Below are positions 7,721 to 53,889 of a DNA stretch of 64,000 bases, piece by piece. How positions within the stretch are numbered: the stretch's first letter is position 1; each line of letters opens with the position of its first letter. Position numbers and translations under genes: made by a program. A model generated the notes under the pieces. That model searched no databases, was not told the DNA's origin, and saw only the letters and a program-made list of their open reading frames with translations. The stretch lies in IMG/VR virus record IMGVR_UViG_3300031746_000002, positions 64,001 to 128,000 of that record; one strand, 5' to 3'. Origin of the DNA: a virus.

Positions 7721-7726
7721 TTGAAT

Positions 7727-7797
7727 TTCCGGGTCGACTAATGGCAGGTCAACAGGCTTTGAACCTGTCAGTGTAGGTTCGAATCCTACCCCGGAAG
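7727..7797 (+). tRNA. trnQ: tRNA-Gln (anticodon TTG), CCA not encoded
   Basis: Acceptor TTCCGGG/CCCGGAA, anticodon arm ACAGG-CTTTGAA-CCTGT, T arm GTAGG-TTCGAAT-CCTAC. Confidence 0.93.
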
Positions 7798-7810
7798 TTT
7801 AGGAGAAAAC

Positions 7811-11087: not shown

Positions 11088-11939
11088 ATGCCAGTAGGAA
11101 TTTATAAACGAACTAAAAAAAATAGCAATAAAGGAAAGCATCTTACTAAAGAATGGTGCGATCATATAAGAAAAGGTAACTTAAAAGCTATCAAAGAAGG
11201 AAGACATAAATCTTGGAATAAGGGTTTAACAAAAGAAACAGATAAAAGATTAATGAATACAAGTAAAAATTTAAAAGGAAAAATTTCATGGAGTAAGGGA
11301 TTAACTAAAGAAAATAATTCGAGTTTAAGACATATGAGTAAATTATTAAAAAATCATACTACTTGGAATAAAGGATTAAAAAAAGATACCGACAAAAGAG
11401 TAAAAAATAGTGCAGAAAAATTAAGTAAAAAACTAATAGGACGAAAACTTTCTAAAAAGCATTGTATAAATATAGGTAAAGCAAGAATTGGTAAGCATCC
11501 GTCTATAAAAATAAGAAAAAATATGATAAAAGCTACAGCTAAAAGAATTTTTGAAGGAAAACAGAAACTTGGTACTAATGGTAAATATTCTAATGTCGTT
11601 ACTTATTTTTATTCAAAGAAAAATAATAAAACGTTTAGGACTGTTTCTAAAAACTATGAATTGAAATGTATTAAACATCTAGAAAATGATAATAATATAG
11701 TTAGTTATGATATGAATTGCTTAGCAATCAGATATTTTTATAAACAAAAATGGCATAACTATTTTCCTGATTTTATAGTAAAAGTTAAAAAAGGGAAAGA
11801 TATAATAATTGAATGTAAACCAAGTAATCATTTAAATGATGAGCAAGTCAAAATTAAGATAAAAGCAGCAAAAAAATATTGTAAGAAAAACAATACGATA
11901 TTTAAAGTTTGGACAGATGAAACAAAGGAAACCAAATGA
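11088..11939 (+). CDS. Free-standing homing endonuclease: WNKGLTK repeats plus TnsA-N-like PD-(D/E)XK domain
   Basis: Three W[NS]KGL[TK]K[ED] repeats; YE...YFPDFIV...IIECKP...KIKAAKKYC...FKVWTD. Confidence 0.8.
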   Translation: MPVGIYKRTKKNSNKGKHLTKEWCDHIRKGNLKAIKEGRHKSWNKGLTKETDKRLMNTSKNLKGKISWSKGLTKENNSSLRHMSKLLKNHTTWNKGLKKDTDKRVKNSAEKLSKKLIGRKLSKKHCINIGKARIGKHPSIKIRKNMIKATAKRIFEGKQKLGTNGKYSNVVTYFYSKKNNKTFRTVSKNYELKCIKHLENDNNIVSYDMNCLAIRYFYKQKWHNYFPDFIVKVKKGKDIIIECKPSNHLNDEQVKIKIKAAKKYCKKNNTIFKVWTDETKETK

Positions 11940-12825: not shown

Positions 12826-12844
12826 CCAATAATATTATTATATA
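12819..12844 (+). promoter_or_regulatory. Candidate late promoter/operator, copy 1 (GGGTTAACYAATAATATTATTATATA)
   Basis: 25/26 identical to 49231-49256; both precede structural operons. Confidence 0.75.
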
Positions 12845-22584: not shown

Positions 22585-24516
22585 ATGGCAAAGTTAGAAG
22601 ATTTTAGTGAAGCACAAAAAAAACGTGCTATAGAACGTTTGGAAAAATTAAATCCTTTAAGTCTTAAAAGGCCTTTACATAAGGGTGAAGAAAATATAGC
22701 TTCTAAAGTAGAGGAACAAATATTTAAAAGACAGGCAGCATTGAAAAGAGAAGCTGGAGACTCTTATTCATTTTCAATGGATTCTACAGCAGGTGTTTCA
22801 AGAGTACCCATTCTATTTGTAGACCCACTATTTGACCCAGTCTTGTTGTTATTTCCTACAGGCGATCTTGAACAATTAAATAAACGGTTACGACATTATT
22901 ATATGTATCATTATTTAGTAGGGAATTTAATAGACCTACACAGCGAATTTCCATTGTCTGATCATGTGCTTGAATGTGAAGATGATAGCATAAAGAAATA
23001 TTACAATGATTTCAAAGACAGAATAGGTGCATTAGATATAATGACACAACAGTTAAGAGGTTATCATTTATTGGGAGAAGCAGTACATTATGGGAACTGG
23101 GATAACAATAACTTTGAATGGGAAAGCTTCACACAGTTCCAGCCAGAAGATATAGAATTGATGGATACGTTTGTAAGTCAACCAGTATTCTTCTTGAAAG
23201 TAAAGAAAGACTCTGAAATAGGAAAGATAGTAAACAACACTTCAGATATGGTAGCAAGAGCAATCACTGAATTACTTCCAGATAAATTAGTATCAGCAGC
23301 AAGGACAGGAAGAAGGGTGCATCTCGATTCAAGCCGAGTTTTGTACTTTGCTAATAAGCCAGAAGGAAGTATGAAGCGTGGACATTCATTGCTTAAAAGA
23401 TGTTTGAAAGATCTAGTGCATGAAGATAGGTTAAGGTTACTTCAACAGAGTTTTATTGAAAGACATTCAAAGCCAATTAAGATATTTAAAGTGGGTTCAA
23501 AAGAACTTGGTTGGATCCCATCAGACAGGCATATGGTGAAACTGCAGAAGTTACTTGCGCAAGCAGCAAATGACCCTGATTTCAATTTAATATATCACCC
23601 ATTCTTAGAGGTTGATTATGTAGGGACAAAAGAAAAGATCACAAACCTCAGTGAAGAATTCGATGATGTACAGAAAAAGATTATGGTAGGATTATTTGCT
23701 AATGATGCATTAGTGCATGGGGAAGCCACTACTTACGCATCTAGTACTGTTCAGCTTAAAATCATAATGTATAGATACTTAGCACAGAGGGCGAAGCTGG
23801 AGAACCTTTGGAAGTATAGAGTGTATCTACCATTAGCAATGAAGAGGGGATTTGTAAGAAGGAGTAAAGCAGAGATAGATCACAATCTACGAATTAATAG
23901 TAAGCTTGATAAATATATAAAGGTTAAAGGACAGGATAGATTAATTGAAGCAGAATTTGTAACAGGTTCTCAAGGACAGAGACTTAATGGTGATGATGGT
24001 AAACCTTTATTAAGGATAGGGAATTCTGTTTATAGAGGCAGTGAATATGATAAATATATAATCCCAGAATATATTTGGCAGAAGAGGAACTTAGTAGACA
24101 GTTCATCTGAAAGGGACATGTTAAGACAACTTAGAGATAATAGTGAAATTCCATTTGAGATGATTGCAGATGCAATGGGTTGGGATATGAAGCATATTGA
24201 AGACATGCTTAAGAAAGAACAGTCAACAGTATTTGATCCAAAATACCGTGCAATAGTAGATGAAAAAACAAAAGATGATGATGCTTATAAAGAGCAGATA
24301 CTTTTAAAGAAGACTCCAGAAGAGGCATTGAAAGAATTAGAAAGACAAAAGCAGAAAGAGAAAGCACCAGTGGTTGAACAAGAAACAGCAGAACAACCTG
24401 AATTAAAAATTCCTGCTAAAGAAGAGACCCCAGAATTACCGCCAGAAGAGGGCGAAAAGAAAGAACCAAAGAAACCCCGAACACCAGTAGGTGGCGAGGA
24501 AACGATAAAGGAATAA
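22585..24516 (+). CDS. Portal protein
   Basis: Position after terL; LVGNLIDLHSEFP, LLGEAVHY, GHSLLKRCLKDL, GEATTYASS; acidic/proline tail; ALKREA motif near N-terminus. Confidence 0.85.
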   Translation: MAKLEDFSEAQKKRAIERLEKLNPLSLKRPLHKGEENIASKVEEQIFKRQAALKREAGDSYSFSMDSTAGVSRVPILFVDPLFDPVLLLFPTGDLEQLNKRLRHYYMYHYLVGNLIDLHSEFPLSDHVLECEDDSIKKYYNDFKDRIGALDIMTQQLRGYHLLGEAVHYGNWDNNNFEWESFTQFQPEDIELMDTFVSQPVFFLKVKKDSEIGKIVNNTSDMVARAITELLPDKLVSAARTGRRVHLDSSRVLYFANKPEGSMKRGHSLLKRCLKDLVHEDRLRLLQQSFIERHSKPIKIFKVGSKELGWIPSDRHMVKLQKLLAQAANDPDFNLIYHPFLEVDYVGTKEKITNLSEEFDDVQKKIMVGLFANDALVHGEATTYASSTVQLKIIMYRYLAQRAKLENLWKYRVYLPLAMKRGFVRRSKAEIDHNLRINSKLDKYIKVKGQDRLIEAEFVTGSQGQRLNGDDGKPLLRIGNSVYRGSEYDKYIIPEYIWQKRNLVDSSSERDMLRQLRDNSEIPFEMIADAMGWDMKHIEDMLKKEQSTVFDPKYRAIVDEKTKDDDAYKEQILLKKTPEEALKELERQKQKEKAPVVEQETAEQPELKIPAKEETPELPPEEGEKKEPKKPRTPVGGEETIKE

Positions 24517-26733: not shown

Positions 26734-26790
26734 ATGTTTACCCGATACAAAAATATAAATAAAAAAACTAGGGTAAAAAAGGAGAACAAA

Positions 26791-27102
26791 ATGGAAACAG
26801 ATGCAGAAATTATTAAAGGGTTAGAAATGAAGAACAAGAAGTTAGTAGAGCGAAATGATGAACTACAAAAAGAAAAGCAAGATTTACAAGCAACAGTAGA
26901 TGAGTTATATGTACCATTAGCATTTGAGTATAAAGAAGGAAGAAAAACATTGCTAATAAAACTTGGATCAAAAGAACGTGGTTGGTTTCCAAGCGGTAGA
27001 CATTTTGCAGCAGCACAGAAACAATTCAAAGCTTGTATGTTGGATAAGAAATTCAATATCATATTATATCACTATGCTATTGAAACACAAATAGTAGAAT
27101 AA
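26791..27102 (+). CDS. Coiled coil fused to a copy of the portal KxGSKExGWxPSxRH segment (mini-portal paralog)
   Basis: GGAG RBS before ATG 26791; 17 identities in 35 ungapped positions against portal codons around 23488-23592. Confidence 0.8.
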   Translation: METDAEIIKGLEMKNKKLVERNDELQKEKQDLQATVDELYVPLAFEYKEGRKTLLIKLGSKERGWFPSGRHFAAAQKQFKACMLDKKFNIILYHYAIETQIVE

Positions 27103-27103
27103 A

Positions 27104-27178
27104 CGGGGTATAGCTCAGTTGGCTAGAGCACACGGTTTGGGGCCGTGGGGTCCGTCAGTTCGAATCTGACTACCCCGA
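27104..27178 (+). tRNA. trnP: tRNA-Pro (anticodon TGG), CCA not encoded
   Basis: Acceptor CGGGGTA/TACCCCG, D arm GCTC/GAGC, anticodon arm CACGG-TTTGGGG-CCGTG, T arm GTCAG-TTCGAAT-CTGAC. Confidence 0.93.
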
Positions 27179-27194: not shown

Positions 27195-27839
27195 ATGCCA
27201 AAAGGACAAATTGCTTGGAATAAAGGATTAACAAAAGAAACAGATGAGCGAGTTGCATTAATAGGAAAAAGCTCGGGTAGGACAAGAATAGGAATGGTAG
27301 GATCGTTTAAAGGAAAACATCATTCTAAACAATCACGTAAAAAAATTAGTAAGAAAATGATGGGTATGGTACATTCTAAAGAACGTCGTTTAAATGAAAG
27401 TAAAGGATATAATCATTCTGAGCAGCATCGTCTTAAAATAAGTATAGCAGCAGCTAAACAAGCTATACAAAATAAACAAGATCATAAATGGAGTTGGGGT
27501 AAATCGGGTTGGTTTTATTCTAAAAAGAATAATAAAAGATTTAGATATTTATCTAGTATTGAATTACAATGTTTAAAATTTTTAGAAAGTAAAGAAGATG
27601 TTTTAAAATATCAAACTAATCCATTAAGAATACTTTATACATATCAAATGCAACAAAGAAATTATATACCCGATATTTTGGTTGAATATAATAATGGTAA
27701 AAAAATATTAATAGAAGTAAAGCATAATAAAGGTTTGAAGAATAATATAGTTCAAATTAAAGCAAAAGCAGCTATAAAATATTGTAAAGAAAATAATATG
27801 GAATATAAATTTTATACAGAGTCTAAATTGCTGATGTAG
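27195..27839 (+). CDS. Free-standing homing endonuclease (WNKGLTKETD, NUMOD3-like, TnsA-N-like domain)
   Basis: AWNKGLTKETD, FKGKHHS..SRKKIS, SSIEL, YIPDILV, LIEVK, KAKAA..YC; paralog of 11088. Confidence 0.8.
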   Translation: MPKGQIAWNKGLTKETDERVALIGKSSGRTRIGMVGSFKGKHHSKQSRKKISKKMMGMVHSKERRLNESKGYNHSEQHRLKISIAAAKQAIQNKQDHKWSWGKSGWFYSKKNNKRFRYLSSIELQCLKFLESKEDVLKYQTNPLRILYTYQMQQRNYIPDILVEYNNGKKILIEVKHNKGLKNNIVQIKAKAAIKYCKENNMEYKFYTESKLLM

Positions 27840-28428: not shown

Positions 28429-28932
28429 ATGAAAAAACGAAAAGTAGGATTTGAAAAATATTTAACAGAAACTTTAGATGCAGACATAGAAAGCAAAGAA
28501 TTGTTTTTAAAGTTGTTTTACAAGCAACCTGTTACAACACAATTAGCAATGTTTCGTAAAGGAATGGGGTTATCCCAAGTAACATTAAGCAACAAAGCAA
28601 AGTTAAAACAATCAGGTGTAGCTAGGTTTGAGAAAGCAGAAGCAAATCCAAGAGTACAAACTATAGAAAAAATAGCAAAAGCATTGGGAGCTAAAGTAAT
28701 TTTGGCTACTCCACGAATGATCGATGTTTTAATTAACAAGGAATTATTGGCACAAGGCGAAGCATATTTTTCTAGTATAGTTTTTGGTAAGAAAAATATT
28801 AAACTTGAAGATTATGTTTCTGATAAATTTAAAAAACCAGCAGATAAAAAACGGTTAGATAAAGAGTATTGTCTAGCAAAGAAAGAACTCGAAAGAGTAG
28901 AAGCAAAGAATAAAATTAAAAGGAGGAAGTAA
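28429..28932 (+). CDS. XRE-family HTH transcriptional regulator
   Basis: RKGMGLSQVTLS...KQSGVARFE....NPRVQTIEKIAKALG. Confidence 0.85.
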   Translation: MKKRKVGFEKYLTETLDADIESKELFLKLFYKQPVTTQLAMFRKGMGLSQVTLSNKAKLKQSGVARFEKAEANPRVQTIEKIAKALGAKVILATPRMIDVLINKELLAQGEAYFSSIVFGKKNIKLEDYVSDKFKKPADKKRLDKEYCLAKKELERVEAKNKIKRRK

Positions 28933-29540: not shown

Positions 29541-29569
29541 TTTACGTTTTCACCGAAATATGGTATAAT
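29541..29569 (+). promoter_or_regulatory. Sigma70-type early promoter, copy 1
   Basis: TTTACG-17 nt-TATAAT with extended -10 TG; spacer conserved with three other copies. Confidence 0.85.
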
Positions 29570-34166: not shown

Positions 34167-34373
34167 ATGATTTCTTATTATGTAGATGATAAAACAGGTA
34201 AAGATATTAATCGTCGAAAAGGAAAGAACCCTAAGAAACCGTGGAAGACTTGGCAATATGCAGTAGATCATATAACAATAATTCCTTGTATATTAAGGTT
34301 TAAACCAAAATACCCTGTTAAATATATAACAGCTACTTTTGATTTGAACAATCTAAAAAGGAGGAAACGATGA
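34167..34373 (+). CDS. Small chimeric protein: beta-helix/tailspike-type N-terminal cap motif plus sheath-like terminal strand
   Basis: YYVD..TG.D....G....PWKTWQYA and LRFKPKYPVKYITATFDL. Confidence 0.45.
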   Translation: MISYYVDDKTGKDINRRKGKNPKKPWKTWQYAVDHITIIPCILRFKPKYPVKYITATFDLNNLKRRKR

Positions 34374-34884: not shown

Positions 34885-34913
34885 TTTACGTTTTCGCTGA
34901 AATATAGTATAAT
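34885..34913 (+). promoter_or_regulatory. Sigma70-type early promoter, copy 2
   Basis: TTTACG-TTTTCGCTGAAATATAG-TATAAT. Confidence 0.85.
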
Positions 34914-35619: not shown

Positions 35620-36370
35620 TCAAAATGAGGATAGTAATATATAAGCACCCATTGCAATTAAAGATTTCAATTAATAAGTTCGGCAGAGGAATTGCTGTCT
35701 TTTTCTTTGGATTAAGCTTATATATTTATATGTACGGCAATACTGAAAGAGATAAGGTTCTATGGTATACAATGTTAACATGGTAAGGAGAAAACAATGG
35801 GAAATGTATTTAGCTGGTTTAAACATGTAATGGGAATAGGCAGGTGGGAGAAACCAAAGACTGATGCAGTGATAGAGAAATTAATTGCAAAAACAAGAGG
35901 TCCAAGTGTGGATCAGAAAACAGCGGATTATAATAAGATGCTAAAACATCGAAGGGAAAGAGTAAAGTTTGCTAGAAGGACAAGGAAGATAAACATTGCA
36001 TTGGAGAAACAATAACTCATGATAAAAAAGAAACGACCAGACTATAGAGGCTTCATGCTACATCTAAAGGATTTAGATAAATATGGAATTGCGTATGGAA
36101 TAAATGATTTGATAGAACTGGCAAATAAGTACAGAACACCAATTCCAAGGTTTATAGGGAGAAGGACACCGAAACTGCTTATGGTAAAAAGATAATGAAA
36201 CCTAAATTAACTGTTAAGATATTAAGGGATAAGATAGGAATGGCTAGAATACATATAGACAGTGCTAAGGCTGTTATGCATTGCGCAACAATAAAGTTTC
36301 ATGATGCAGAATACGAATATAATATATTACGAAAAAGATTAAAAGCAATGATAAGTAAAAGGAAAAACAA

Positions 36371-36811
36371 ATGAAAATCTGCATTGTAGGAAGTTATAAA
36401 TGGAAAGATGAAGATATTAAAGTTGCAAAGAAAGTAATTAAGTTGATCTTTGATGTTATAGAAAAATACAATGATGTAATAATCATATCAGGTGAATGTC
36501 CAAAAGGCGGAGTAGATATTTGGGCAAAAGAAGAGGCTGAAAACAGGGAAATGGAATATCAGGGGTTTTATCCTAAAGGTAATTCAAAAATGTTCTACAT
36601 GCAACGTAACAAGAAGATGGCACTTACTTGTGATGCTTTATTCAGAATAGCTTCACGTGCAAGTACTACATATGGAAGTGGAATAACAATGAAATGGGCA
36701 GCAGAGCAGAAGAAACCTTTTTATAACATAATCGTAGCAAATTATATCAATACTGATGAAATTAAAAAAGGCATTAGAAAAATATTAGACTCAATAACAG
36801 AGAGGAAATAA
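36371..36811 (+). CDS. SLOG-superfamily (YspA/DprA-like) protein
   Basis: KICIVGS, IISGECPKGGVDIWA, RNKKMA..CD, GSGITM..A. Confidence 0.75.
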   Translation: MKICIVGSYKWKDEDIKVAKKVIKLIFDVIEKYNDVIIISGECPKGGVDIWAKEEAENREMEYQGFYPKGNSKMFYMQRNKKMALTCDALFRIASRASTTYGSGITMKWAAEQKKPFYNIIVANYINTDEIKKGIRKILDSITERK

Positions 36812-38504
36812 TGGTTAAGAATAAGAGAACAAAGAAAAAGAAATCATATGAAGTTATTATAGCTATGGTATTAACAACAAAAATGAAAGATGGTGAAAGA
36901 ACAACAATACCCATAACACACTACGATGATAGTGATCTAGACAAGCTACAAGCTATAGTAATTAAACATGTCAACTGTATATTTAAGAAAGGAAAAGAGA
37001 TATGGAGAAAATAAATGGGCAGGTGTATTTATAGATATAGTGTAAAAATATATTATCCAAAAATTCATATGGTACAACTTTGTCAATTAAAAGAAGCAGC
37101 GTATGGTGGCGATTATAATAAGACAGCATGTAATAGTATAAAGAAAGATTGTCCAATTCTTAGAATGGTTAATAGAGTGGAAGAGATAAGGAGAACAAAT
37201 GATAATAACAAACAATGATATTTTGGGATTGTGTTTACTTGGGTTAGTAATAGTAATTTTTGGAATGGGAAGTGGAGGAGGTGGTGGAGGATGTGGAGTT
37301 AATCCTCCTCCTAAAACACCGAGACCAGCAAATCCACCGCAAGGACAAGAGACAAGAATAATAACATCAATAGGTGATAACAAAATAGCGCACCAAGAAA
37401 TGAGAACTTTACAACCACCTCCAGCTACAAAGGAGAAACAATAAGAAAAACGAAATAGCAGAACAAGAGGATAGTATGGAATTTTTTGGTTTAATATTTA
37501 AAATAGTCTTTAGTATATTTGCACTGATTATACTCTATTATATATCTAACTATTTTTTAGGTCCAGTTCTATTTTATCTATTTGAAACTGAAGATAATTT
37601 ATTCTGGTTTGTAGTGGTAGGATTAATAGCTGTATTTTGCTGGAAAAAGGAGGGATAAATGTTATTAGCGGATTGTCTTGGTAAAAGGATTTTGTATGAT
37701 GTTAGATATAGTGAATATGGTATAGATGAAGCAACAGTAGTTGAAATATCTCCCAACAAAGAATATGCACGTTTAAGACATCCTAATGGAAACTTTACTT
37801 GGGAAAGAATAGAAACTTGGAATGGAAAACATCATGTAGTAGATACATTGATAATAAAGAATGGTGCACTATCAATACAAAAGATTATGCATGTGATGAG
37901 AACAGGTAAACCTTTAAAGGAGAAAAAGTAATGGAAACATTGCGTATATTAATGAAGGATCCAGGCATGGCAATATTCTTAATCATATTAGGAATATGTG
38001 CTATTGGGTGCATCATAGGAATATTCTATTCAATATTAAGGAACGACCCAGAAAGACCGTTCTAAAGGAGAAATAACATGGATTATATGGGAATGGATCC
38101 AGCTTTCGTTTGGTATAGCTTCTCATTCTTTATATTTTTAATAATAGTGTTTAGTAGTGCTATGGTTTACTGCAAGCATAGAACAGAAAAAGGTCTTGCA
38201 AGATATTTAATTGTTTATCCTATTTTTTTAACAATCGCTGCAGGTTGGTGCTACCTACAAGCAGGAATACCAGTATTTGTTAGTAGCGATAGTCTTACAT
38301 TATTTTGTGCTGGCTTCTTTTTTATAGGGGGATTTATAGTATTCATGGTTATTTATAACCAGATGAAAAAAGATTTAGGTCCTAGAATTGATATTAAAAT
38401 TAAATCAAATACACAACGGGATAATAAAGGAAGATTTAAGAAGCAGAACAAAATGACTGCAGATGAAATTGCAAGTATAGATACAATAGATTAAAGGAGA
38501 AACA

Positions 38505-39248
38505 ATGGGAATGTATGATAATGTAACAGGCAAATGTCCCTACTGCGGAAAAGAGTTTTATACACAAACAAAGTTATTTGGGTCGATGATGATGAATTAT
38601 ACAATAGGCAGCCGGATATTTGAAAACTCATTAGCGCTTTATGCATCAGTATTACTTAAGGATGTTTGCTTTGAATGCAGGCAGCCAATAGTTATGATGA
38701 TTGAAAACAACATAATAACAGCATTTAAAAAAGTAACTGAAGAAAAACCAATGTATATTGAAGGACCGTGGGGCAGCTTTGAAAAGAATGAAGAAGCTAA
38801 TGCTGTAGACAATGATGGCAACCCAATTAAAACAGGGTTCAGCGGAGGAACAGTATCAAGTGTAATAGATGCTCCATTAGACAGTCATATCATAGACGTA
38901 ATAAAAGAAAGAATACGGTGCATTGATTTTGGACACCATGATATAAATAGCTTCTGTACTGAAAAAGAGTTCTTAAATAACTTATTAATATTAAATGAAC
39001 GAGCAGCTAAGCTACCAGCACATAGCTTACCGCCAAAAGAGATATATGATGTATTACATGCAGCAGAAGAGAATGGAATAAATATCCCACTTACAGTTGA
39101 TGAATGGTGGAAGAAAGAAACGGAGATAAACGAAATGAACAAAGGATTTACATTGCCTGAACTGGTAATTACAACGGTGATAGTAATAGTTATAGGGTTC
39201 TTATTCTGGAAGTTTGTATTGACTACAGTAATTAAATTGATAATGTAA
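38505..39248 (+). CDS. Zinc-ribbon protein with in-frame C-terminal prepilin-like peptide (own RBS/ATG at 39135)
   Basis: MGMYD...CPYC...QTK; C-terminal MNKG-FTLPELVITTVIVIVIG. Confidence 0.6.
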   Translation: MGMYDNVTGKCPYCGKEFYTQTKLFGSMMMNYTIGSRIFENSLALYASVLLKDVCFECRQPIVMMIENNIITAFKKVTEEKPMYIEGPWGSFEKNEEANAVDNDGNPIKTGFSGGTVSSVIDAPLDSHIIDVIKERIRCIDFGHHDINSFCTEKEFLNNLLILNERAAKLPAHSLPPKEIYDVLHAAEENGINIPLTVDEWWKKETEINEMNKGFTLPELVITTVIVIVIGFLFWKFVLTTVIKLIM

Positions 39249-39580
39249 TGAAGATACGAAATAAAAAACAATATTTCAAAGAATATAATTGTGAGAAAGA
39301 GCTTAAACAATTCTGTAAATATGTATTCAAAGATTTAGAACTTAAGGGCTGGAAAGTTAAGAAAGCAAAAGATAGTTACTGTAACCAAAGAACAAAAACT
39401 ATCACATTAGCTGAATATCACTTTGCAGGATTATATCTTTTTGATGCTAAGATATTCTTTCTGCATGAAGTAGCACATATATTTACATATCCGAAAGATC
39501 ATTGGCATGGAGATTTATGGCAAAATAGATACAAAGATCTAGTTTTTAAATTCATCATACATGAAGGAGAAGTATATTAA
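39248..39580 (+). CDS. SprT-like HEXXH zinc metallopeptidase
   Basis: FLHEVAH.....HWHG..W. Confidence 0.7.
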   Translation: MKIRNKKQYFKEYNCEKELKQFCKYVFKDLELKGWKVKKAKDSYCNQRTKTITLAEYHFAGLYLFDAKIFFLHEVAHIFTYPKDHWHGDLWQNRYKDLVFKFIIHEGEVY

Positions 39581-39593
39581 AAGGAGGAGTAAC

Positions 39594-39938
39594 ATGTGGA
39601 TAACTAGGAAATATATTCAAGAACATGAAGACACAATCTTTGTATTTGGAGACAATGTAGAAGGTTATGGGAATGGAGGACAAGCAGCAGAGGCACGTGG
39701 AGAAAATAATGTAATAGGCATTCCAACTAAATGGAGTCCCAGGGAATTCTTCAAAGATGAAGACTATGATAAGGTAATACCCATTATTGATGCAGCATTC
39801 CAACAGATTAAATATCAACTGAACATAATGGGATTTAATATAGTATTCTTTCCAGACATCGGCAAAGGACTTGCAGAGCTTCCAAAGAGAGCACCCAAAA
39901 TCTACCAATATATTAAGGATAAGATAGAGAGCTTCTAA
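39594..39938 (+). CDS. Conserved phage protein (FVFGDN...GGQA...GIPTK family)
   Basis: AGGAGG RBS; FVFGDNVEGYGNGGQA, IGIPTK, IGKGLA motifs. Confidence 0.65.
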   Translation: MWITRKYIQEHEDTIFVFGDNVEGYGNGGQAAEARGENNVIGIPTKWSPREFFKDEDYDKVIPIIDAAFQQIKYQLNIMGFNIVFFPDIGKGLAELPKRAPKIYQYIKDKIESF

Positions 39939-40187
39939 TGCCCAATCCAGAATTAGGTCAAGTTGTCCAAGCCACTCATTTCAAATGTCCCAAGTGTAAA
40001 ACAGATAGATTCATTCTAGATAAGATGGGTTTAATCTGCACTATATGTAAGGCATTCTTTAGTGCAGCATATATCAATTACGATAATGATAACCAACAAA
40101 ACGGAGTAGATATTTATGCTGATAATATAAACCAAGCTGAAAGTTCGACGAAATAAAGCTTAATAATTAAATGGGAAGGATAAGAAG

Positions 40188-40856
40188 ATGGTATCTATTA
40201 AACTAACAAAAGAAGAATATGAGCTTTTGAAAAGTCCAGAGATGCAGAAATATTATATATTTAAAAAAAGTAAAGCATCACACCAGCAATGTTTAAATGC
40301 AGCTCTTACTGAATTAAGCTGGGGTAAATTCATGCAGCCCAATCATATAGATAAAACAAGATTTCCTTATCCTTTATTAAAAGAAGCACATGGGGGATTT
40401 GATTATACACGTTTTGCTGTAATGATAGATATTAAATCAACAACTATAAATGTTAAATATGTAGCAAAATATTTTCAATGCTCTATTGATGCAGGACAAA
40501 TAGATCAAAAATGTGAGATATATGTTTTTATATTTGTAAACATTGAAACTTTAACTTGTATAATTGCTGGATATATTTTAAAGAAAGATTTTATTAAGAA
40601 AGCAAGGATAATTAATCCCGGTGAATTATTAGGTAATAAAAAGCCAGCAGTTAGAAAAAGCTATACTGTTGAAGTACAAGATTTGATATTAATAGAATCA
40701 CCAAGGAATTTTAGTATTGAGATGAAAGCATTAAGTAAAAAATTAGGTTATTATAAGAAATGGAAAGAGAATCATGATTTACATCTTAATTTAACAAAGA
40801 TGAAATCTAAAACAATGCATGCAATAGATTATGATGATGAAGATGATGAGGAATAA
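40188..40856 (+). CDS. Putative PD-(D/E)XK nuclease-like protein
   Basis: E...GGFD.....IDIKST...IYVF...IAGYI pattern. Confidence 0.5.
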   Translation: MVSIKLTKEEYELLKSPEMQKYYIFKKSKASHQQCLNAALTELSWGKFMQPNHIDKTRFPYPLLKEAHGGFDYTRFAVMIDIKSTTINVKYVAKYFQCSIDAGQIDQKCEIYVFIFVNIETLTCIIAGYILKKDFIKKARIINPGELLGNKKPAVRKSYTVEVQDLILIESPRNFSIEMKALSKKLGYYKKWKENHDLHLNLTKMKSKTMHAIDYDDEDDEE

Positions 40857-40859
40857 ACA

Positions 40860-41141
40860 ATGTCAAAACCAGAAAGAGTTCATATAACAAAGAAAATTAT
40901 AAATGAAGCAGTTGGACGTTTTAAAAAAATTGTAGCTGGCAGGTTATACCAAAAGGGATCAGGTGCTTTCATAAACAATCATGAAACTCTTGGCATTATT
41001 ACTGAAGAATATTATGAGTTGATAGAAGCAGTAAAAACAGATGATGATGAAAAAGTATTACATGAATTACAAGACATAGGCGTTGCTTGCATTTTAGGTT
41101 GGATAGGTATAGTATTAGGATGGAGGGAAATAGATAAATGA
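40860..41141 (+). CDS. MazG-like NTP pyrophosphohydrolase domain protein
   Basis: ITEEYYELIEAV......HELQDIG (ExxE...ExxD). Confidence 0.65.
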   Translation: MSKPERVHITKKIINEAVGRFKKIVAGRLYQKGSGAFINNHETLGIITEEYYELIEAVKTDDDEKVLHELQDIGVACILGWIGIVLGWREIDK

Positions 41142-41700
41142 AAACAATATACAAGTATGTAGTACCTCATGATGGCACTGAAATACAAATGCCAATAGGT
41201 GCAGAGATATTAACTGTTGCAATGCAAGTAGGTGAAATATACATCTGGGCAATAGTTGATACTGATAATAAATTTGAAACAAGAAAATTTATAGCCCAAG
41301 CTACAGGAAGAGAAATGCCAGAAGGCAAATTAAAATATATAGGAACTGTATTTATAGGGACTATGCTTATGGAGTTGGTGTTTCATGTGTTTGAGAAGCT
41401 GAAGGAGTTACAGTGAAAAAAGAAATAATGAATTTTAAAGATGCTATTAACATACTTAAAAATCTTACTGTTAATGATAAGAACGAATCTATAGATATAG
41501 GTATAAATCAATATGACGGTATTTATGAGCATGGTGAATTACATATAGATTTTGGTTTAGGAAATAGTTTTGAAGAAGCAGTAATTAGTGCTGCTAAGGA
41601 AGTAATAAGAAAATATCCAGAATATTCAAAATATTTAAGAATGCCAAATGATAAAATTTTAGAAAATTTTGAAAAGTTTAACTTGAGATAAGGAATTGCA

Positions 41701-42114
41701 ATGAGAAAAGCAATTGACATATGTGTTATCCCTTGGCATGAACGTTGGGCAGTCAAGAAGGACTCCTGCAAGCGACCAATAGTTACTTGCCAATATAAAT
41801 ACCAAGCAATTCATATTGCTGAAGAGCTGACCATCTGCGATAGGATGCCGACATCAGTAAAGATAGGATTAGATGATAGGTTATTCAATAGGGCTAAAAT
41901 CCATTATTTAGTAAGTTATAAAAAAGGAAAGATAGTAAGAACTGGTGTACATAAGTTGGTAAAGAAATTAGCACCAGCATTTGCTGCACCGCTTCGGATA
42001 AGATTGGATTATCAAGGAATTGCTAAAAGGTTGGTTCGTTCATTTAAGAAATTTAAAAGTAAGCTTCCAGTATACGATAAAGATCTGCCGAAACGAAAAA
42101 GGAGCAAACGATGA
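41701..42114 (+). CDS. DUF2188-like domain fused to a copy of the major-capsid N-terminal segment
   Basis: VIP...RWAVKK....QAI..A; C-terminus has 18/45 ungapped identities to MCP codons 53026-53160. Confidence 0.8.
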   Translation: MRKAIDICVIPWHERWAVKKDSCKRPIVTCQYKYQAIHIAEELTICDRMPTSVKIGLDDRLFNRAKIHYLVSYKKGKIVRTGVHKLVKKLAPAFAAPLRIRLDYQGIAKRLVRSFKKFKSKLPVYDKDLPKRKRSKR

Positions 42115-42580
42115 GAAACGAACAAGAAACAATCGAACAGTATAGAAAAGAAGAGAAAGAAGTATTTAGCTTTGCAGAGGACTTGCTTGAATTCGTAACC
42201 TTTGAAGCGGCTAAAGAATTCATAGAACCAAAGCTTCTTAAAGATTATGAAAGCGGCAAAGAGAAGTGGACATTTACAAAACCTACAAGAGCAAATATAT
42301 TAAAGAAAATAAGGGACTACATGGAATTCGCATTAGGGAAAGCAGAAGACCACAGAGGATTATCAGCGGAAAGATCTATAGAACATTTCAAACATTGGGT
42401 CTGGCTGCTTGGCGATAAGGATTATAAAGTAATTAATTGGGAGAACTATACCAATTATGGTACACCAATATTAAAACAAATCTGCGAAGTATATGAAATA
42501 GACTTTCCTGAAGACAATCATAAATTAGTGAGTATGTCACAAGGAAAGAAATGCGACATTGAGTGCGAAGGATGTGGAGA

Positions 42581-42961
42581 ATGAAACAAAAAACTATAGC
42601 AGTAGATTTCGATGGAGTACTAGCATCATATAATGGCTGGAAAGGTTTTGATGTATTGGGACGACCCGATGCTTATATCATTACATTGTTACATGATTTA
42701 CACCAAGAGGGTTGGAAAATAATAATCTTCACAACACGACAAGATACCCCTACATTAAGGGAATGGTTAAAGATATATGAAGTACCATTTAATGAAATAA
42801 ATAGAAACTCAGATAATCCTGAATGTACATCTATCAAACCTATCTATGATATTATATTAGATGATAGAGCAATAAACTATCACGGGCAAAATGTTAGTGA
42901 AATAAAAGATCAGATAGCGGAAGTATTAGCAAACGATGAGAAACGAAAAGATAAAGAATGA
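42581..42961 (+). CDS. HAD-superfamily phosphatase-like protein
   Basis: IAVDFDGVL, IFTTR, KP..DIILDDRA. Confidence 0.85.
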   Translation: MKQKTIAVDFDGVLASYNGWKGFDVLGRPDAYIITLLHDLHQEGWKIIIFTTRQDTPTLREWLKIYEVPFNEINRNSDNPECTSIKPIYDIILDDRAINYHGQNVSEIKDQIAEVLANDEKRKDKE

Positions 42962-44594: not shown

Positions 44595-44623
44595 TTTACG
44601 TTTTCGTCGAAATATAGTATAAT
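44595..44623 (+). promoter_or_regulatory. Sigma70-type early promoter, copy 3
   Basis: TTTACG-TTTTCGTCGAAATATAG-TATAAT. Confidence 0.85.
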
Positions 44624-48554: not shown

Positions 48555-48583
48555 TTTACTTTTTCACCGAAATATAGTATAAT
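48555..48583 (+). promoter_or_regulatory. Sigma70-type early promoter, copy 4
   Basis: TTTACT-TTTTCACCGAAATATAG-TATAAT. Confidence 0.85.
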
Positions 48584-49230: not shown

Positions 49231-49256
49231 GGGTTAACTAATAATATTATTATATA
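49231..49256 (+). promoter_or_regulatory. Candidate late promoter/operator, copy 2
   Basis: GGGTTAACTAATAATATTATTATATA, 25/26 identical to 12819-12844; precedes head operon. Confidence 0.75.
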
Positions 49257-49699: not shown

Positions 49700-52153
49700 A
49701 TGCTGAAATCGGGATATAATCAAGGCGTAGGCTTTTACAGGCAAGCAGAACTTCAAATCATATCTACACTCACTAAGCAAGGCGACTGGCAAAACTTCTT
49801 AAATAAAGAATCATCCTTCTTAAAAAAAGCTGCATTTGAATACGACCCAGAAAATTTCTTATACTTTAGAGCTAGAGCAATTTCAGGCGGAGAGAAACAT
49901 GGCCCAAATGGTAATGGAGATTATTTTCCGTGGAAAGAATTACTCGCCTCATACGATACCTTTATAGGAAAAGGTTTCTACTTAGATCACAAATCAGATA
50001 ATATAGAGAATGCAAAAGGAATTATTCTTGATGCATTTCCTGTGGAACCAGATGAATATATTGAATGCTTAGTTGCTGTTGATAGAAAATTAGCTCCAGA
50101 TGTTTGTAGGCAAATCGAATCAGGAATTCTTAATGCAGTATCAATGGGTTGTTTGGCACAATCTGCTGAATGCTGCATTTGTCATAATGTAGCTCATAAT
50201 GAAGCACAACTTTGCGATCATATGAGACCAGGTCATGCTGCTTATGTTAAAGGTAGAGAATATTCAGGGCAAGTAAAAGCTGATATGAAATTGTGGCAAG
50301 ATAAAACAGCATTTGAAATAAATAAACAAATCATATTTACAGAGTTAAGTGGAGTAACAACTGGTGCAGATAAAGGTGCTCATATATTTGAAATTATAGC
50401 AGCAGAGTTAAAAGAAAAAGTAGAGCAGCTATTAAATCATTTCAAACGATATCAAGCATTAAAACAAGGAGTTGATATGGATAAGAAAACTATAAGTGAA
50501 GCTAAGCTGAAAATGCTTGCAGAAATATTAAATGTATTTGAAGAAAAGCAGAAAGGTGCTACATCAGAGGAAATGATAAAAGCACTTGGTTCGCTTAAAG
50601 AAGAAATAGCTGGAAAGCTGGGTACACTTGATAAACAGATAGAGGATTTTGTCATTGCAAAGTTTGATGAGATACTTAATGATGAAGATCAAGGCGAAGG
50701 CCCAATAATTAATGAAGCTATAGGAACTATTGACCCAGCCAAAGCTGCGACAACTGGCGATGCGGCTGCATCTGTAGTAGTTGACCCAGCCGGTAAGACT
50801 CAAGCAGAGCTTGATAAGGATGCAATATCTGAAGAAGAAGTAAAGAATAAAGAAAAAGAAGACAAAGAAAAGAAAGTAAAAAAGATGAAAAAAGAAATGC
50901 CAAAGCTTAAATCATTAATTGAAAATATAGTAAGACGAATAGTGAAGGGCGAAGATATCGAGAGGCTAGAGAAAAAAGAAACCGAAACAGGAACTGAATT
51001 AGAAATAGCACTCGGTGATGGTTATGTCCTGAAACAATGCAAGGATGTACCCAAGTTATTAGCACAGCTTTTTGACAGAGACCAAGCGACTGGAGTATAC
51101 ATTGAATTGCTTGATCCCAAAGGCGAAATGTCAGAGGCTGATAAAGTTGTACATTACAGAAAAAGATTAATGTTAGAAGTACCAGCAGTACAATCTGAAT
51201 TAAAGGAGGAAGCAGCAATGGAACAAAAAAATGCACATTTTAAAATTGATTATGAAGATGCACAGTCAGGGTCATTGAGGGATAACTATTTTGTAGCTTC
51301 AGAAAATGGAGAAGAGAAAAGGGTTAAGGCTACTTATATTATACCTTTAGATATCCAGAAAAAAATTGAAGCTAAAGAACTGGAAGATATAATTTCAGTT
51401 GAAGAAAGTATTGAGCAAATGACAAAAGAATGCGGCGGAACAATGGACGGTTTCAGACAGTTTGTGAAATCAGCCAAAAGGGAAGCATTTTCTAGGGCTG
51501 CAAAAGAACTAATAACTTCAGTCAACCCTGCAGAAATGCCAGCACCTCCAAAGAAACAATTTGGTAAGGTTACAAAGTCAGTCAATGAAGCTGAAGAAGC
51601 TGCTGATAAGAAAGACATACCAGGCACATCAGGTGGTTCAGCTGGTAAAAGGGTAAAGGATTTTTATAGCAGGCTGCCGAATGCTGGTCCTGGCGGAGAA
51701 GATATCGTTAAAGCTATTAATCCCCAGAGCGCTCTTCTTGTTGAAGAGAATAAGAAAATAGCAGCAGACCTTAAGAAATCACAGGATGATTTAGCTGCTA
51801 GAGAAGCAGAGCTTAACTCATTGAAACAAAAAGAAACAGTAAGAGCAAGTTCAGAAACAATAGCAATGGTATTAAATGAAATCAACCAGAAACTTGGCAT
51901 AGAAGTTGGCAAGGACAGGACCAAGATACTGGTAAATGCATTAGCCCAAATGGACCAGGATAACCTGTTAAAGGTGAAATCATTCATAGGGCTGCTGACA
52001 GACAAAGAGGTAAACGAAATCGAAATCGAAGAAGAGACAGGTAATCTACCTCAGATTACTGCAAGTGCAGAAGGATCTGCTGGGGTTGAAATGGTTGAAA
52101 ACCTCAAAGATGCAATGGTAGCAAGAGAAAAATCCAAGTATGTAAAGAAGTAA
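49700..52153 (+). CDS. Prohead protease-scaffold fusion
   Basis: NGNGDYF, YLDH (His), AVSMGC (Ser), CCIC...CDH zinc insert, FTELSGV..GAD; long acidic coiled-coil C-terminus; upstream of MCP. Confidence 0.88.
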   Translation: MLKSGYNQGVGFYRQAELQIISTLTKQGDWQNFLNKESSFLKKAAFEYDPENFLYFRARAISGGEKHGPNGNGDYFPWKELLASYDTFIGKGFYLDHKSDNIENAKGIILDAFPVEPDEYIECLVAVDRKLAPDVCRQIESGILNAVSMGCLAQSAECCICHNVAHNEAQLCDHMRPGHAAYVKGREYSGQVKADMKLWQDKTAFEINKQIIFTELSGVTTGADKGAHIFEIIAAELKEKVEQLLNHFKRYQALKQGVDMDKKTISEAKLKMLAEILNVFEEKQKGATSEEMIKALGSLKEEIAGKLGTLDKQIEDFVIAKFDEILNDEDQGEGPIINEAIGTIDPAKAATTGDAAASVVVDPAGKTQAELDKDAISEEEVKNKEKEDKEKKVKKMKKEMPKLKSLIENIVRRIVKGEDIERLEKKETETGTELEIALGDGYVLKQCKDVPKLLAQLFDRDQATGVYIELLDPKGEMSEADKVVHYRKRLMLEVPAVQSELKEEAAMEQKNAHFKIDYEDAQSGSLRDNYFVASENGEEKRVKATYIIPLDIQKKIEAKELEDIISVEESIEQMTKECGGTMDGFRQFVKSAKREAFSRAAKELITSVNPAEMPAPPKKQFGKVTKSVNEAEEAADKKDIPGTSGGSAGKRVKDFYSRLPNAGPGGEDIVKAINPQSALLVEENKKIAADLKKSQDDLAAREAELNSLKQKETVRASSETIAMVLNEINQKLGIEVGKDRTKILVNALAQMDQDNLLKVKSFIGLLTDKEVNEIEIEEETGNLPQITASAEGSAGVEMVENLKDAMVAREKSKYVKK

Positions 52154-52869: not shown

Positions 52870-53823
52870 ATGTATACACAAAAACAAATCGATCAAATAA
52901 TTAACGGCATAGTCCAGTTGTCCGACTCAGTTCGTGGCGCTGGATTACAGAGGCAAGCAGGTTTAAGTTCAGTACCAGCTCCAGAACTAGAACAATGGTT
53001 CGAGCAGACATTTGATGGTCCAAACGGACTCAAGAGAATAGCGTATGCATTCAAAGAGCCGTTGAAGATAGTAATGGATTATCAGGGTGTAGGCAGGAGA
53101 ATACTGAAAGTTGACGACATGCCAGTAGGCGAAATCCCGGCGTATGATAAAGATATTCCGGAATTTGCAGCAGTCCGAATGGCACAGCGCGGCGCACCAC
53201 CGCAGGTTGAGTGGGAACTTGAAAGGCTTGCAATACCAACAACTAAAATCATGGTCAATGATAAAGTTGACTATGAAGAAATTCAAATCAGAAGGTACCC
53301 TGTATTTGACAGAGCAAAAGAAAGAACAGGTATCGCAATTGCAATAGCAGAAGACAGGGAAATATTCCAGCTTCTGGAAACAGCAGCACTTGTAGGACCC
53401 AATGATAGCATCGACATTGGTACTGACCCATTCTCAAAGACAGCATTTGCAGAAGCATTTGGTATAATCACTGGTAACCAGCTTGCAGCTGGAGCCATAC
53501 TGATGCATCCAAAAGATTATGCAGATATTTTGACATGGAACAGTACTGATCTTGACCAAGTAACGTTGAATGAAATAATTTCAACGGGAGCAGCAGGAAG
53601 CATATGGAATATGCCGTTCATAGTTTCAACAAAGATGCCAATAGGCGTAGCATATGCAGTTACAACGCCTGATAAGCTTGGTAGGATTCCTGAAAGGAAG
53701 CCAGTAGAACTGAAGATATTTGACTATGTTCCAAAGGCACATTATGCATTCATGGCTTGGGAACAGGTTGGATTTGGCTGCCATAACACGCAAGGTGTCG
53801 TCAAGATTTACAGATCAGCGTAA
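52870..53823 (+). CDS. Major capsid protein (HK97 fold)
   Basis: Strong RBS; MDYQGVGRRIL, P.YDKD, DRAK...AEDREIF.LL, ILMHP..Y.DI, WEQVGFG; followed by strong terminator. Confidence 0.88.
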   Translation: MYTQKQIDQIINGIVQLSDSVRGAGLQRQAGLSSVPAPELEQWFEQTFDGPNGLKRIAYAFKEPLKIVMDYQGVGRRILKVDDMPVGEIPAYDKDIPEFAAVRMAQRGAPPQVEWELERLAIPTTKIMVNDKVDYEEIQIRRYPVFDRAKERTGIAIAIAEDREIFQLLETAALVGPNDSIDIGTDPFSKTAFAEAFGIITGNQLAAGAILMHPKDYADILTWNSTDLDQVTLNEIISTGAAGSIWNMPFIVSTKMPIGVAYAVTTPDKLGRIPERKPVELKIFDYVPKAHYAFMAWEQVGFGCHNTQGVVKIYRSA

Positions 53824-53853: not shown

Positions 53854-53889
53854 GTAGGAGAGGTAGTAAATCTACCTCTCCTACTTTTT
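53854..53889 (+). terminator. Intrinsic terminator after MCP
   Basis: GTAGGAGAGGTAG-TAAAT-CTACCTCTCCTAC perfect 13-bp stem plus T5. Confidence 0.92.

Follow-up and report, generated by a model that had tools for sequence, protein, structure and literature searches.

The immune sensors Lit and CapRel detect the major capsid protein (MCP) via a short motif. For phage T4, a review (PMC3014915) states that a 29-residue stretch of gp23, Gol, which lies in the first quarter of the protein and is its most conserved region, suffices for Lit activation, and that Gol binds domains II-III of EF-Tu, with a suggested role in translation and folding of the capsid protein. Mimicry of virion proteins has also been described: DSAD1 of SPbeta-like phages is an accessory protein that resembles the tail tube and sits in the activator pocket of the defence protein DSR2, of which it is an inhibitor; in the source's words, it "mimics TTP to trap DSR2" (PMC10973363). 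In 80alpha, the helix-and-hook at the C-terminus of the scaffold binds the N-arm helix alpha1, a site for which CpmB competes (PMC5644958), and the SaPIbov5 protein Ccm is described as a capsid-protein homologue (PMC8569155). Among the papers listed by our literature searches, supplements aside, we found none on phage genes carrying MCP fragments.

We report a small gene of an uncultured sediment phage, here referred to as the carrier gene, the product of which (P0001) has at residues 87-131 a segment homologous to the predicted N-arm of phage G gp27-type MCPs (PDB 6WKK; phrog_2522; PF25209), with the invariant residues kept. Compared with an MCP of this type the carrier has approximately 45 of approximately 280 residues and is without the E-loop proper, the spine helix, the P-domain and the A-domain; moreover, the hairpin tip of the segment is changed, and a basic Cys/His domain with no relation to the MCP and a Lys/Arg tail flank it. 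P0001 resembles a virion protein, as DSAD1 does, through its likeness to the MCP N-arm, and the DSAD1 mode of action is the one that we rank first among those proposed for P0001. However, DSAD1 mimics a tail tube and P0001 would mimic a capsid, and binding, demonstrated for DSAD1, is a proposal for P0001. Gol and the MCP stretch of which the P0001 segment is a copy are both short, conserved and N-terminal, and Gol on its own is read by host factors (PMC3014915); Gol is, however, part of the MCP and the trigger itself, while P0001 is the product of a separate gene, and the MCP lineage of T4 gp23 is a different one. Finally, SaPI1 CpmB and SaPIbov5 Ccm compete at the N-arm interface or are capsid homologues (PMC5644958 and PMC8569155), and P0001 might act similarly, but they are satellite-encoded whereas the P0001 gene lies in a phage genome beside phage genes; what is copied is the scaffold side of the interface in CpmB and the N-arm side in P0001, and Ccm is a full-length capsid homologue, which P0001 is not. 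It is only by analogy that P0001 may be said to resemble DSAD1-type mimics or CpmB-type interface competitors in action.

The DNA analysed (the window) comprises 64,000 nucleotides, from base 64001 to base 128000 of a virus record of 138.9 kb that has an estimated completeness of 68% and a G+C content of 32%. The carrier gene was taken from the list of open reading frames and their translations; it is located at 41701..42114 on the plus strand and encodes 137 amino acids. A Shine-Dalgarno-like AAGGA (41690..41694, plus strand) is read six nucleotides upstream of the ATG. The N-terminal domain (residues 1-85, 41701..41955) has the invariant residues Cys8, Cys23, Cys30, Cys46, His38, His68 and His84, and it is followed by the MCP N-arm-like segment (residues 87-131, 41959..42093), which was delimited using BLASTP, hhalign and a comparison of alignment columns and consists of a helix, DYQG, a variable hairpin tip and PVYDKDLPK. 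The protein ends in the Lys/Arg tail KRKRSKR (42091..42111, read from the sequence); the AAGGAG ribosome site of the downstream gene lies within the codons of this tail, and the start of that gene overlaps the P0001 stop codon (ATGA). The downstream gene (42111..42584, plus strand) encodes 157 amino acids and belongs to phrog_5706, function unknown. P0001 is very basic, with a pI of 10.4 and 36 Lys and Arg compared to 11 Asp and Glu.

The initial annotation had described P0001 as a DUF2188-like accessory protein. Its accessory character holds (see below), whereas the DUF2188 label has little behind it: residues 9-43 give a weak Pfam match to DUF2188 (PF09954; E 0.035) with 14.7 bits against a gathering cutoff of 22, and over P0001 and its homologues P0003 and P0004 the E-values range between 0.035 and 0.077 (14.7, 14.2 and 13.6 bits, respectively), all below that cutoff. 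In the ESM Atlas the clusters nearest to P0001 are DUF2188, at 0.75-0.77, which is under the level that counts. We know of no stated counterpart in DUF2188 to the four invariant cysteines of the P0001 type. Membership in DUF2188 is not demonstrable with scores under the Pfam cutoff, and a small module that is very basic and rich in Cys and His describes the domain better. Other comparisons of the N-terminal domain gave an E-value of 0.01 against phrog_3220, and a profile search over 1.84 billion representatives retrieved, at E≤1e-3, neither a relative that has the domain by itself nor a relative from DUF2188. The only further Pfam matches were below threshold (DUF5817, E 0.0028; zf-Mss51, E 0.035), and a zinc site in the N-terminal domain is possible. 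The AlphaFold2 model of P0001, based on an alignment of nine rows, was too poor to use (mean pLDDT 38, pTM 0.17).

The MCP of the same genome, P0002, is encoded on the plus strand at 52870..53823 (317 amino acids) and has the HK97 fold of the phage G gp27 type, as judged from its matches to phrog_2522 'major head protein' (E 1.2e-36) and to phage G gp27 in PDB 6WKK (E 1e-44, residues 39-313), and from Foldseek, where the top matches of its model are HK97 heads. The MCP's own copy of the segment, representing the source type, spans residues 54-98 (53029..53163, plus strand). In the model it opens with a helix (residues 53-72) and lies upstream of the P-domain strand (124-134) and the spine helix (145-175). 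The monomer model has a pLDDT of 68 overall and 32-46 over residues 61-121, where the path of the N-arm and E-loop is unreadable; since pLDDT is below 50 there, we infer from the order of the HK97-fold elements that the copied piece extends from the N-arm helix over a hairpin to the E-loop base. Of the 40 columns that are invariant among 36 MCPs, 11 fall within the 45-residue segment, which places it among the best-conserved stretches of the family. Upstream of the MCP gene, an 817-amino-acid protein (49700..52153, plus strand) carries an N-terminal prohead protease (phrog_18299, E 1.5e-17, residues 69-184) followed by approximately 570 charged residues that are helical by eye and end in REKSKYVKK, and it looks like a protease-scaffold fusion. 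Also upstream of the MCP is a 169-amino-acid ORF, which was considered as the phage G decoration protein gp26 and rejected (no similarity, E 0.28; no family match). Immediately following the MCP gene, at 53854-53884, are a strong hairpin of 13 bp and a T-run.

The initial annotation had noted an ungapped match to the MCP with 18 of 45 residues identical at 41956-42090 (P0001 residues 86-130); the MCP sequence that it quoted starts at 53026. BLASTP bears this out: in a single comparison, P0001 residues 87-131 align without gaps to MCP residues 54-98 with 18/45 identities and 32/45 positives (E 9e-11), and in an all-against-all comparison of the 222 plus-strand ORFs of at least 50 codons in the 138.9-kb genome the E-value for the pair is 1.2e-8, one of just 10 non-self pairs at E≤1e-3. 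When a profile of three carriers was aligned to a profile of 36 MCPs using hhalign, 45 columns were matched (probability 96.3%, E 1.7e-9) and nothing aligned outside P0001 residues 87-131. Judged by its significance in BLASTP, in the all-against-all comparison and between profiles, the match is genuine and far exceeds what chance would give. Within the genome the segment is confined to the carrier and the MCP. Searching 50,697 phage records with tblastn, the sole match of P0001 was the MCP gp27 of Bacillus phage G (47.5% identity over 40 amino acids), and a second carrier, P0124, also matched gp27 (64.5% over 31 amino acids). As the initial annotation had it, DYQG and P-x-YDKD are intact in P0001 and the acidic middle has turned basic, KVDDMPVGE in the MCP corresponding to RSFKKFKSK. 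Two more extensive readings of the likeness were discarded. Some BLAST alignments span 78-84 residues with 24-31% identity, but the profile-profile alignment stops at 45 columns; and P0001, with 137 amino acids of which only 45 columns align and without a match to the PHROG and Pfam capsid models, was not taken to be an HK97-fold capsid protein.

At the DNA level the carrier and the MCP share 51% identity over the segment and agree at 17 of 46 third codon positions, and the copy is therefore old and not the result of a recent duplication. Contigs from two other sediment runs (X2 and X3) span 41690-42400 with approximately 96% identity and no indels. Inside the carrier ORF they show 18 changes, 13 synonymous and five non-synonymous, giving a pN/pS of approximately 0.10 (approximately 87 synonymous and 324 non-synonymous sites). 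The low pN/pS and the lack of indels indicate that the carrier is a genuine gene and that purifying selection acts on it. Moreover, P0003 (73% identity to P0001) and P0004 (64%) retain PLR, DY-G-IAK and PVYDKDLPK without any change, whereas variation and indels are seen between these motifs. The third codon positions, the pN/pS ratio and the motifs that are invariant in homologues all agree with the earlier proposal of selection rather than recent duplication. The segment is present in all eight other members of the carrier family, i.e. it is neither missing nor frameshifted in the relatives, the outcome that had been named beforehand as speaking against the proposal.

To describe the family, P0003 and P0004 were found using a word-indexed search of 5.8 billion proteins, and when 1.84 billion representatives were searched exhaustively with a profile (E≤1e-3), four matches were obtained: P0001, P0124, P0126 and P0125. 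The last of these (3384 amino acids) was treated as spurious, being repetitive by eye and matching in four short stretches (E 1.4e-4). In all, five carrier clusters were found in the two collections, compared to 121 clusters of the MCP family (E≤1e-5), and we found no further member of the carrier family in IMG/VR, in GTDB genomes or in the 50,697 phage records. A scan of JGI metagenomes gave 31 loci; when the enclosing frames were read, 30 of these were MCPs and one (L013) represented the last 100 residues of P0004. Near the MCP gene, at nine long related loci, there was no second copy of the segment within 10 kb.

The segment was thus also found on other carriers, as the initial annotation had suggested looking for: P0124 (91 amino acids) and P0126 (79 amino acids, ending within the motif and possibly cut) have the same segment behind a different, shorter Cys/His N-terminus (C-x4-H...C-x2-C). 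The Cys/His positions are C10, H15, C23 and C26 in P0124 and C14, H19, C21, C28 and C31 in P0126. P0124 is 51% identical to P0001 over 59 amino acids (E 7e-15), and the part that they share is the segment and the tail only. The Lys/Arg tail is present in four of the five carrier types (P0001, P0003, P0004 and P0124), and all carriers are Cys/His-rich and very basic (pI 9.0-10.4). MAFFT aligns the C-x4-H motif and R-x-G between P0124/P0126 and P0001, while N-terminal homology between them is not supported by BLAST. In a tree of the segment, a weak one (152 segments, 51 columns), the nine carrier rows fall on one side of a branch with an SH-aLRT value of 89. In view of the shared C-x4-H and R-x-G and the grouping of the segments we set aside the alternative that P0124 and P0126 represent separate captures, and we therefore read the five carriers as one family with a remodelled N-terminal domain. 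Within this tree the carrier segment lies closer to the phage G clade than to its own MCP, with path lengths of 1.46-1.59 and 2.02, respectively, and pairwise identities of 22/48 (to the MCP of L007) versus 18/51.

Which residues the carriers have kept was studied by comparing columns with 143 MCP segments (from 151 sequences; eight of 175-249 residues, under full length and without a match, were dropped). D70, Y71, D95, P90, Y92, D93, P64 and L65 are retained in all five carriers, and D70, Y71 and D95 are each present in 143 of the 143 MCPs. Two basic positions have been exchanged, R76 to Lys in four of five carriers and K66 to Arg in all five. In contrast, the hairpin tip, which is acidic and near-invariant in MCPs, is lost, D82 and G87 each being kept in two of the five carriers. 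The MCP has a pI of 5.1, against the basic pI of the carriers. A predicted structure of the complex between the MCP (36 rows) and the carrier (nine rows) scored 0.00 in two runs made without controls and speaks neither for nor against an interaction.

Two kinds of repeated upstream motifs describe the genomic setting. The first is an extended sigma-70-like promoter, TTTACG-17-TATAAT, with near-identical copies at 29541-29569, 34885-34913 (plus strand), 44595-44623 and 48555-48583, i.e. four copies in the window compared to 0.00 expected. Each copy directly precedes a run of small genes, and a count of 9-mers suggests two more copies outside the window. The second, AATAATATTATTATATA, occurs at 12828-12844 and 49240-49256 (the latter on the plus strand; two copies compared to 0.02 expected); at 12828 it precedes an operon for large proteins that ends in the portal gene and at 49240 the protease-MCP (head) operon, and it is a candidate promoter of structural genes. 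The carrier gene is positioned between these two operons, and AATAATATTATTATATA was not found near it. It lies 6.8 kb downstream of the 34885 promoter copy in a series of closely spaced genes, and the interval from 36000 to 41701 has no terminator-like site on the plus strand, from which we infer that it is expressed with this early-type block, apart from the head genes. With respect to the neighbouring genes, a 92-amino-acid ORF (41413-41691) is missing in X2 and X3, the strains with 96% identity, where the end of the gene at 41138-41416 joins the carrier gene (loose contig ends at 41690). The genes downstream of the carrier fragment in L013 differ from those in the window, and the 157-amino-acid phrog_5706 gene is not its neighbour there. 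Together, the differing neighbours and the missing upstream ORF mark the carrier as a mobile, single-gene accessory cassette.

Since its tail is an old and selected copy, the carrier probably imitates the MCP N-arm stretch towards whatever reads that stretch. The most likely picture suggested by the sequences is that the N-arm is imitated in trans, such that a reader of the motif would be offered the same stretch on a small, early and expendable protein. Specifically, we propose, tentatively and with a confidence that stays short of even, that the carrier mimics the N-arm early in infection and thereby blocks whatever reads the MCP motif, probably an immune sensor. The carrier would be a small basic, putatively zinc-binding protein, the C-terminal 45-50 residues of which imitate the N-arm of a phage G-type MCP, presumably its best-conserved stretch and the hardest to change. 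Transcribed probably from the early host-type promoter block, ahead of the appearance of the MCP, it would occupy beforehand a factor by which this short MCP motif is recognised on freshly synthesised capsid protein. The likeliest candidate is an immune sensor of the Lit or CapRel kind, encoded by the host or by a prophage; being pre-occupied, this sensor would not be triggered later by the flood of true MCP. We favour this reading because of the accessory character of the carrier, its early-type setting and the presence of a second virion-protein fragment, from the portal, in the same genome; the activation of Lit by Gol (PMC3014915) and the trapping of DSR2 by DSAD1 (PMC10973363) fit it as well. 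A wider version, in which the carrier and the portal fragment are parts of an early kit of interface mimics that blinds sensors of unchangeable virion motifs, with the carrier counteracting a reader of the N-arm similar to Lit or CapRel, we regard as rather doubtful.

Some points speak against a decoy. Offered as a free copy, a trigger motif might activate a sensor instead of blocking it, and a pI of 10.4 and a Cys/His domain are unneeded for a decoy and suggest nucleic-acid binding instead. In addition, Avs7, Avs8 and Avs10 are reported to bind the A-domain of the MCP and not the N-arm (10.64898/2026.01.04.697583), and therefore only motif-reading sensors would fit.

Among the alternatives, the one that survives best, even if we think it unlikely, is that the carrier acts in head assembly as an adaptor or internal head protein. 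Its N-arm copy would dock on the C-terminus of the scaffold or on an adjacent MCP, at its inner face or its edge, by which a basic nucleic-acid-binding module might be brought into the procapsid, or assembly tuned or delayed. The binding of the 80alpha scaffold C-terminus to the N-arm helix alpha1 (PMC5644958) provides a precedent: the helix is a known place for scaffold docking, which fits an assembly role too. That the helix and its flanking motifs are retained in the carriers agrees with such a role, the pI of 9-10.4, the Lys/Arg tail and the Cys/His domain suit DNA binding inside the head, and the gene sits between the portal and protease-MCP operons; yet it belongs to the sigma-70-like promoter block and does not follow the motif of the structural operons. 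Moreover, the patchy distribution (five carrier clusters among the searched proteins against 121 for the MCP) and the nine related loci with no second copy near the MCP speak against a part of the head machinery, and the hairpin tip, near-invariant in MCPs, is not conserved in carriers. A targeting leader of the T4 CTS type or a cleavage motif is also lacking: L-x-[KR]-x-A, the proposed site of the prohead protease, is present three times in the MCP but absent from P0001, P0003, P0004 and P0124, and in P0126 it occurs once, inside the helix.

It is more doubtful still that the carrier is a dominant-negative N-arm fragment, which would poison the capsids of co-infecting phages or soak up satellite redirectors while the phage's own assembly is tolerant. 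An accessory single-gene cassette would suit interference of this kind, satellites act at the same interface (CpmB, PMC5644958; Ccm, PMC8569155), and the segment is nearer to the phage G clade and the family consensus than to its own MCP, but alignments of approximately 48 residues are too short to assign a donor clade. The family-invariant residues that the carrier has kept are also those of its own MCP, and self-poisoning would therefore be hard to avoid. We give an equally low probability to a shared handle for a host factor, where the N-arm motif would bind a factor that handles nascent MCP and the carrier would redirect or reserve this factor early. The segment is, like Gol, a conserved N-terminal MCP stretch, and binding of Gol to EF-Tu perhaps aids translation and folding of the capsid protein (PMC3014915). 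Finally, that the segment is an idle relic of an old gene fusion, with selection acting on the N-terminal domain alone, is very improbable: the drift of the hairpin tip would agree with it, but the MCP-invariant residues are kept in five of five carriers while the rest of the protein has been changed or replaced, and P0124 shares with P0001 precisely the segment and the tail.

If the early mimic does block a sensor of capsid motifs, it would exemplify a general route by which phages shield motifs that they cannot mutate, i.e. by copying them onto expendable early proteins, and the partner of the carrier would, if the sensor reading is true, lead to a new sensor in sediment bacteria. If the carrier instead docks on the head-assembly machinery, it would represent a natural case of targeting by N-arm self-mimicry. 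Under either reading the segment would mark the part of phage G-type MCPs that is read in trans.

Other fragments resembling virion proteins are present in the window. A 122-amino-acid ORF (26734-27102) matches residues 289-346 of the 643-amino-acid portal protein (22585-24516) with 37% identity over 59 amino acids (E 1e-7). The first 35 residues of a 68-amino-acid ORF (34167-34373) match the N-terminus of a 756-amino-acid virion structural protein (G000:C1:25424-27694, locus L036; phrog_21285) with 42% identity over 33 amino acids (E 1.8e-4), and this ORF, too, ends in a Lys/Arg tail. Such tails, defined as at least five Lys or Arg among the last eight residues, are present in seven of the 199 non-overlapping plus-strand ORFs of the genome compared to 0.54 expected from internal windows; those within the window end at 28932, 32906, 34373, 42114 and 46326. 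They may represent a shared C-terminal tag or a mere bias at the C-terminus. In addition, the genome has four paralogues of 214-292 amino acids with 28-45% mutual identity, two of which (11088-11939 and 27195-27839) are in the window, and tRNA genes are located at 7726-7798 (tRNA-Gln, ttg) and 27104-27178 (tRNA-Pro, tgg).
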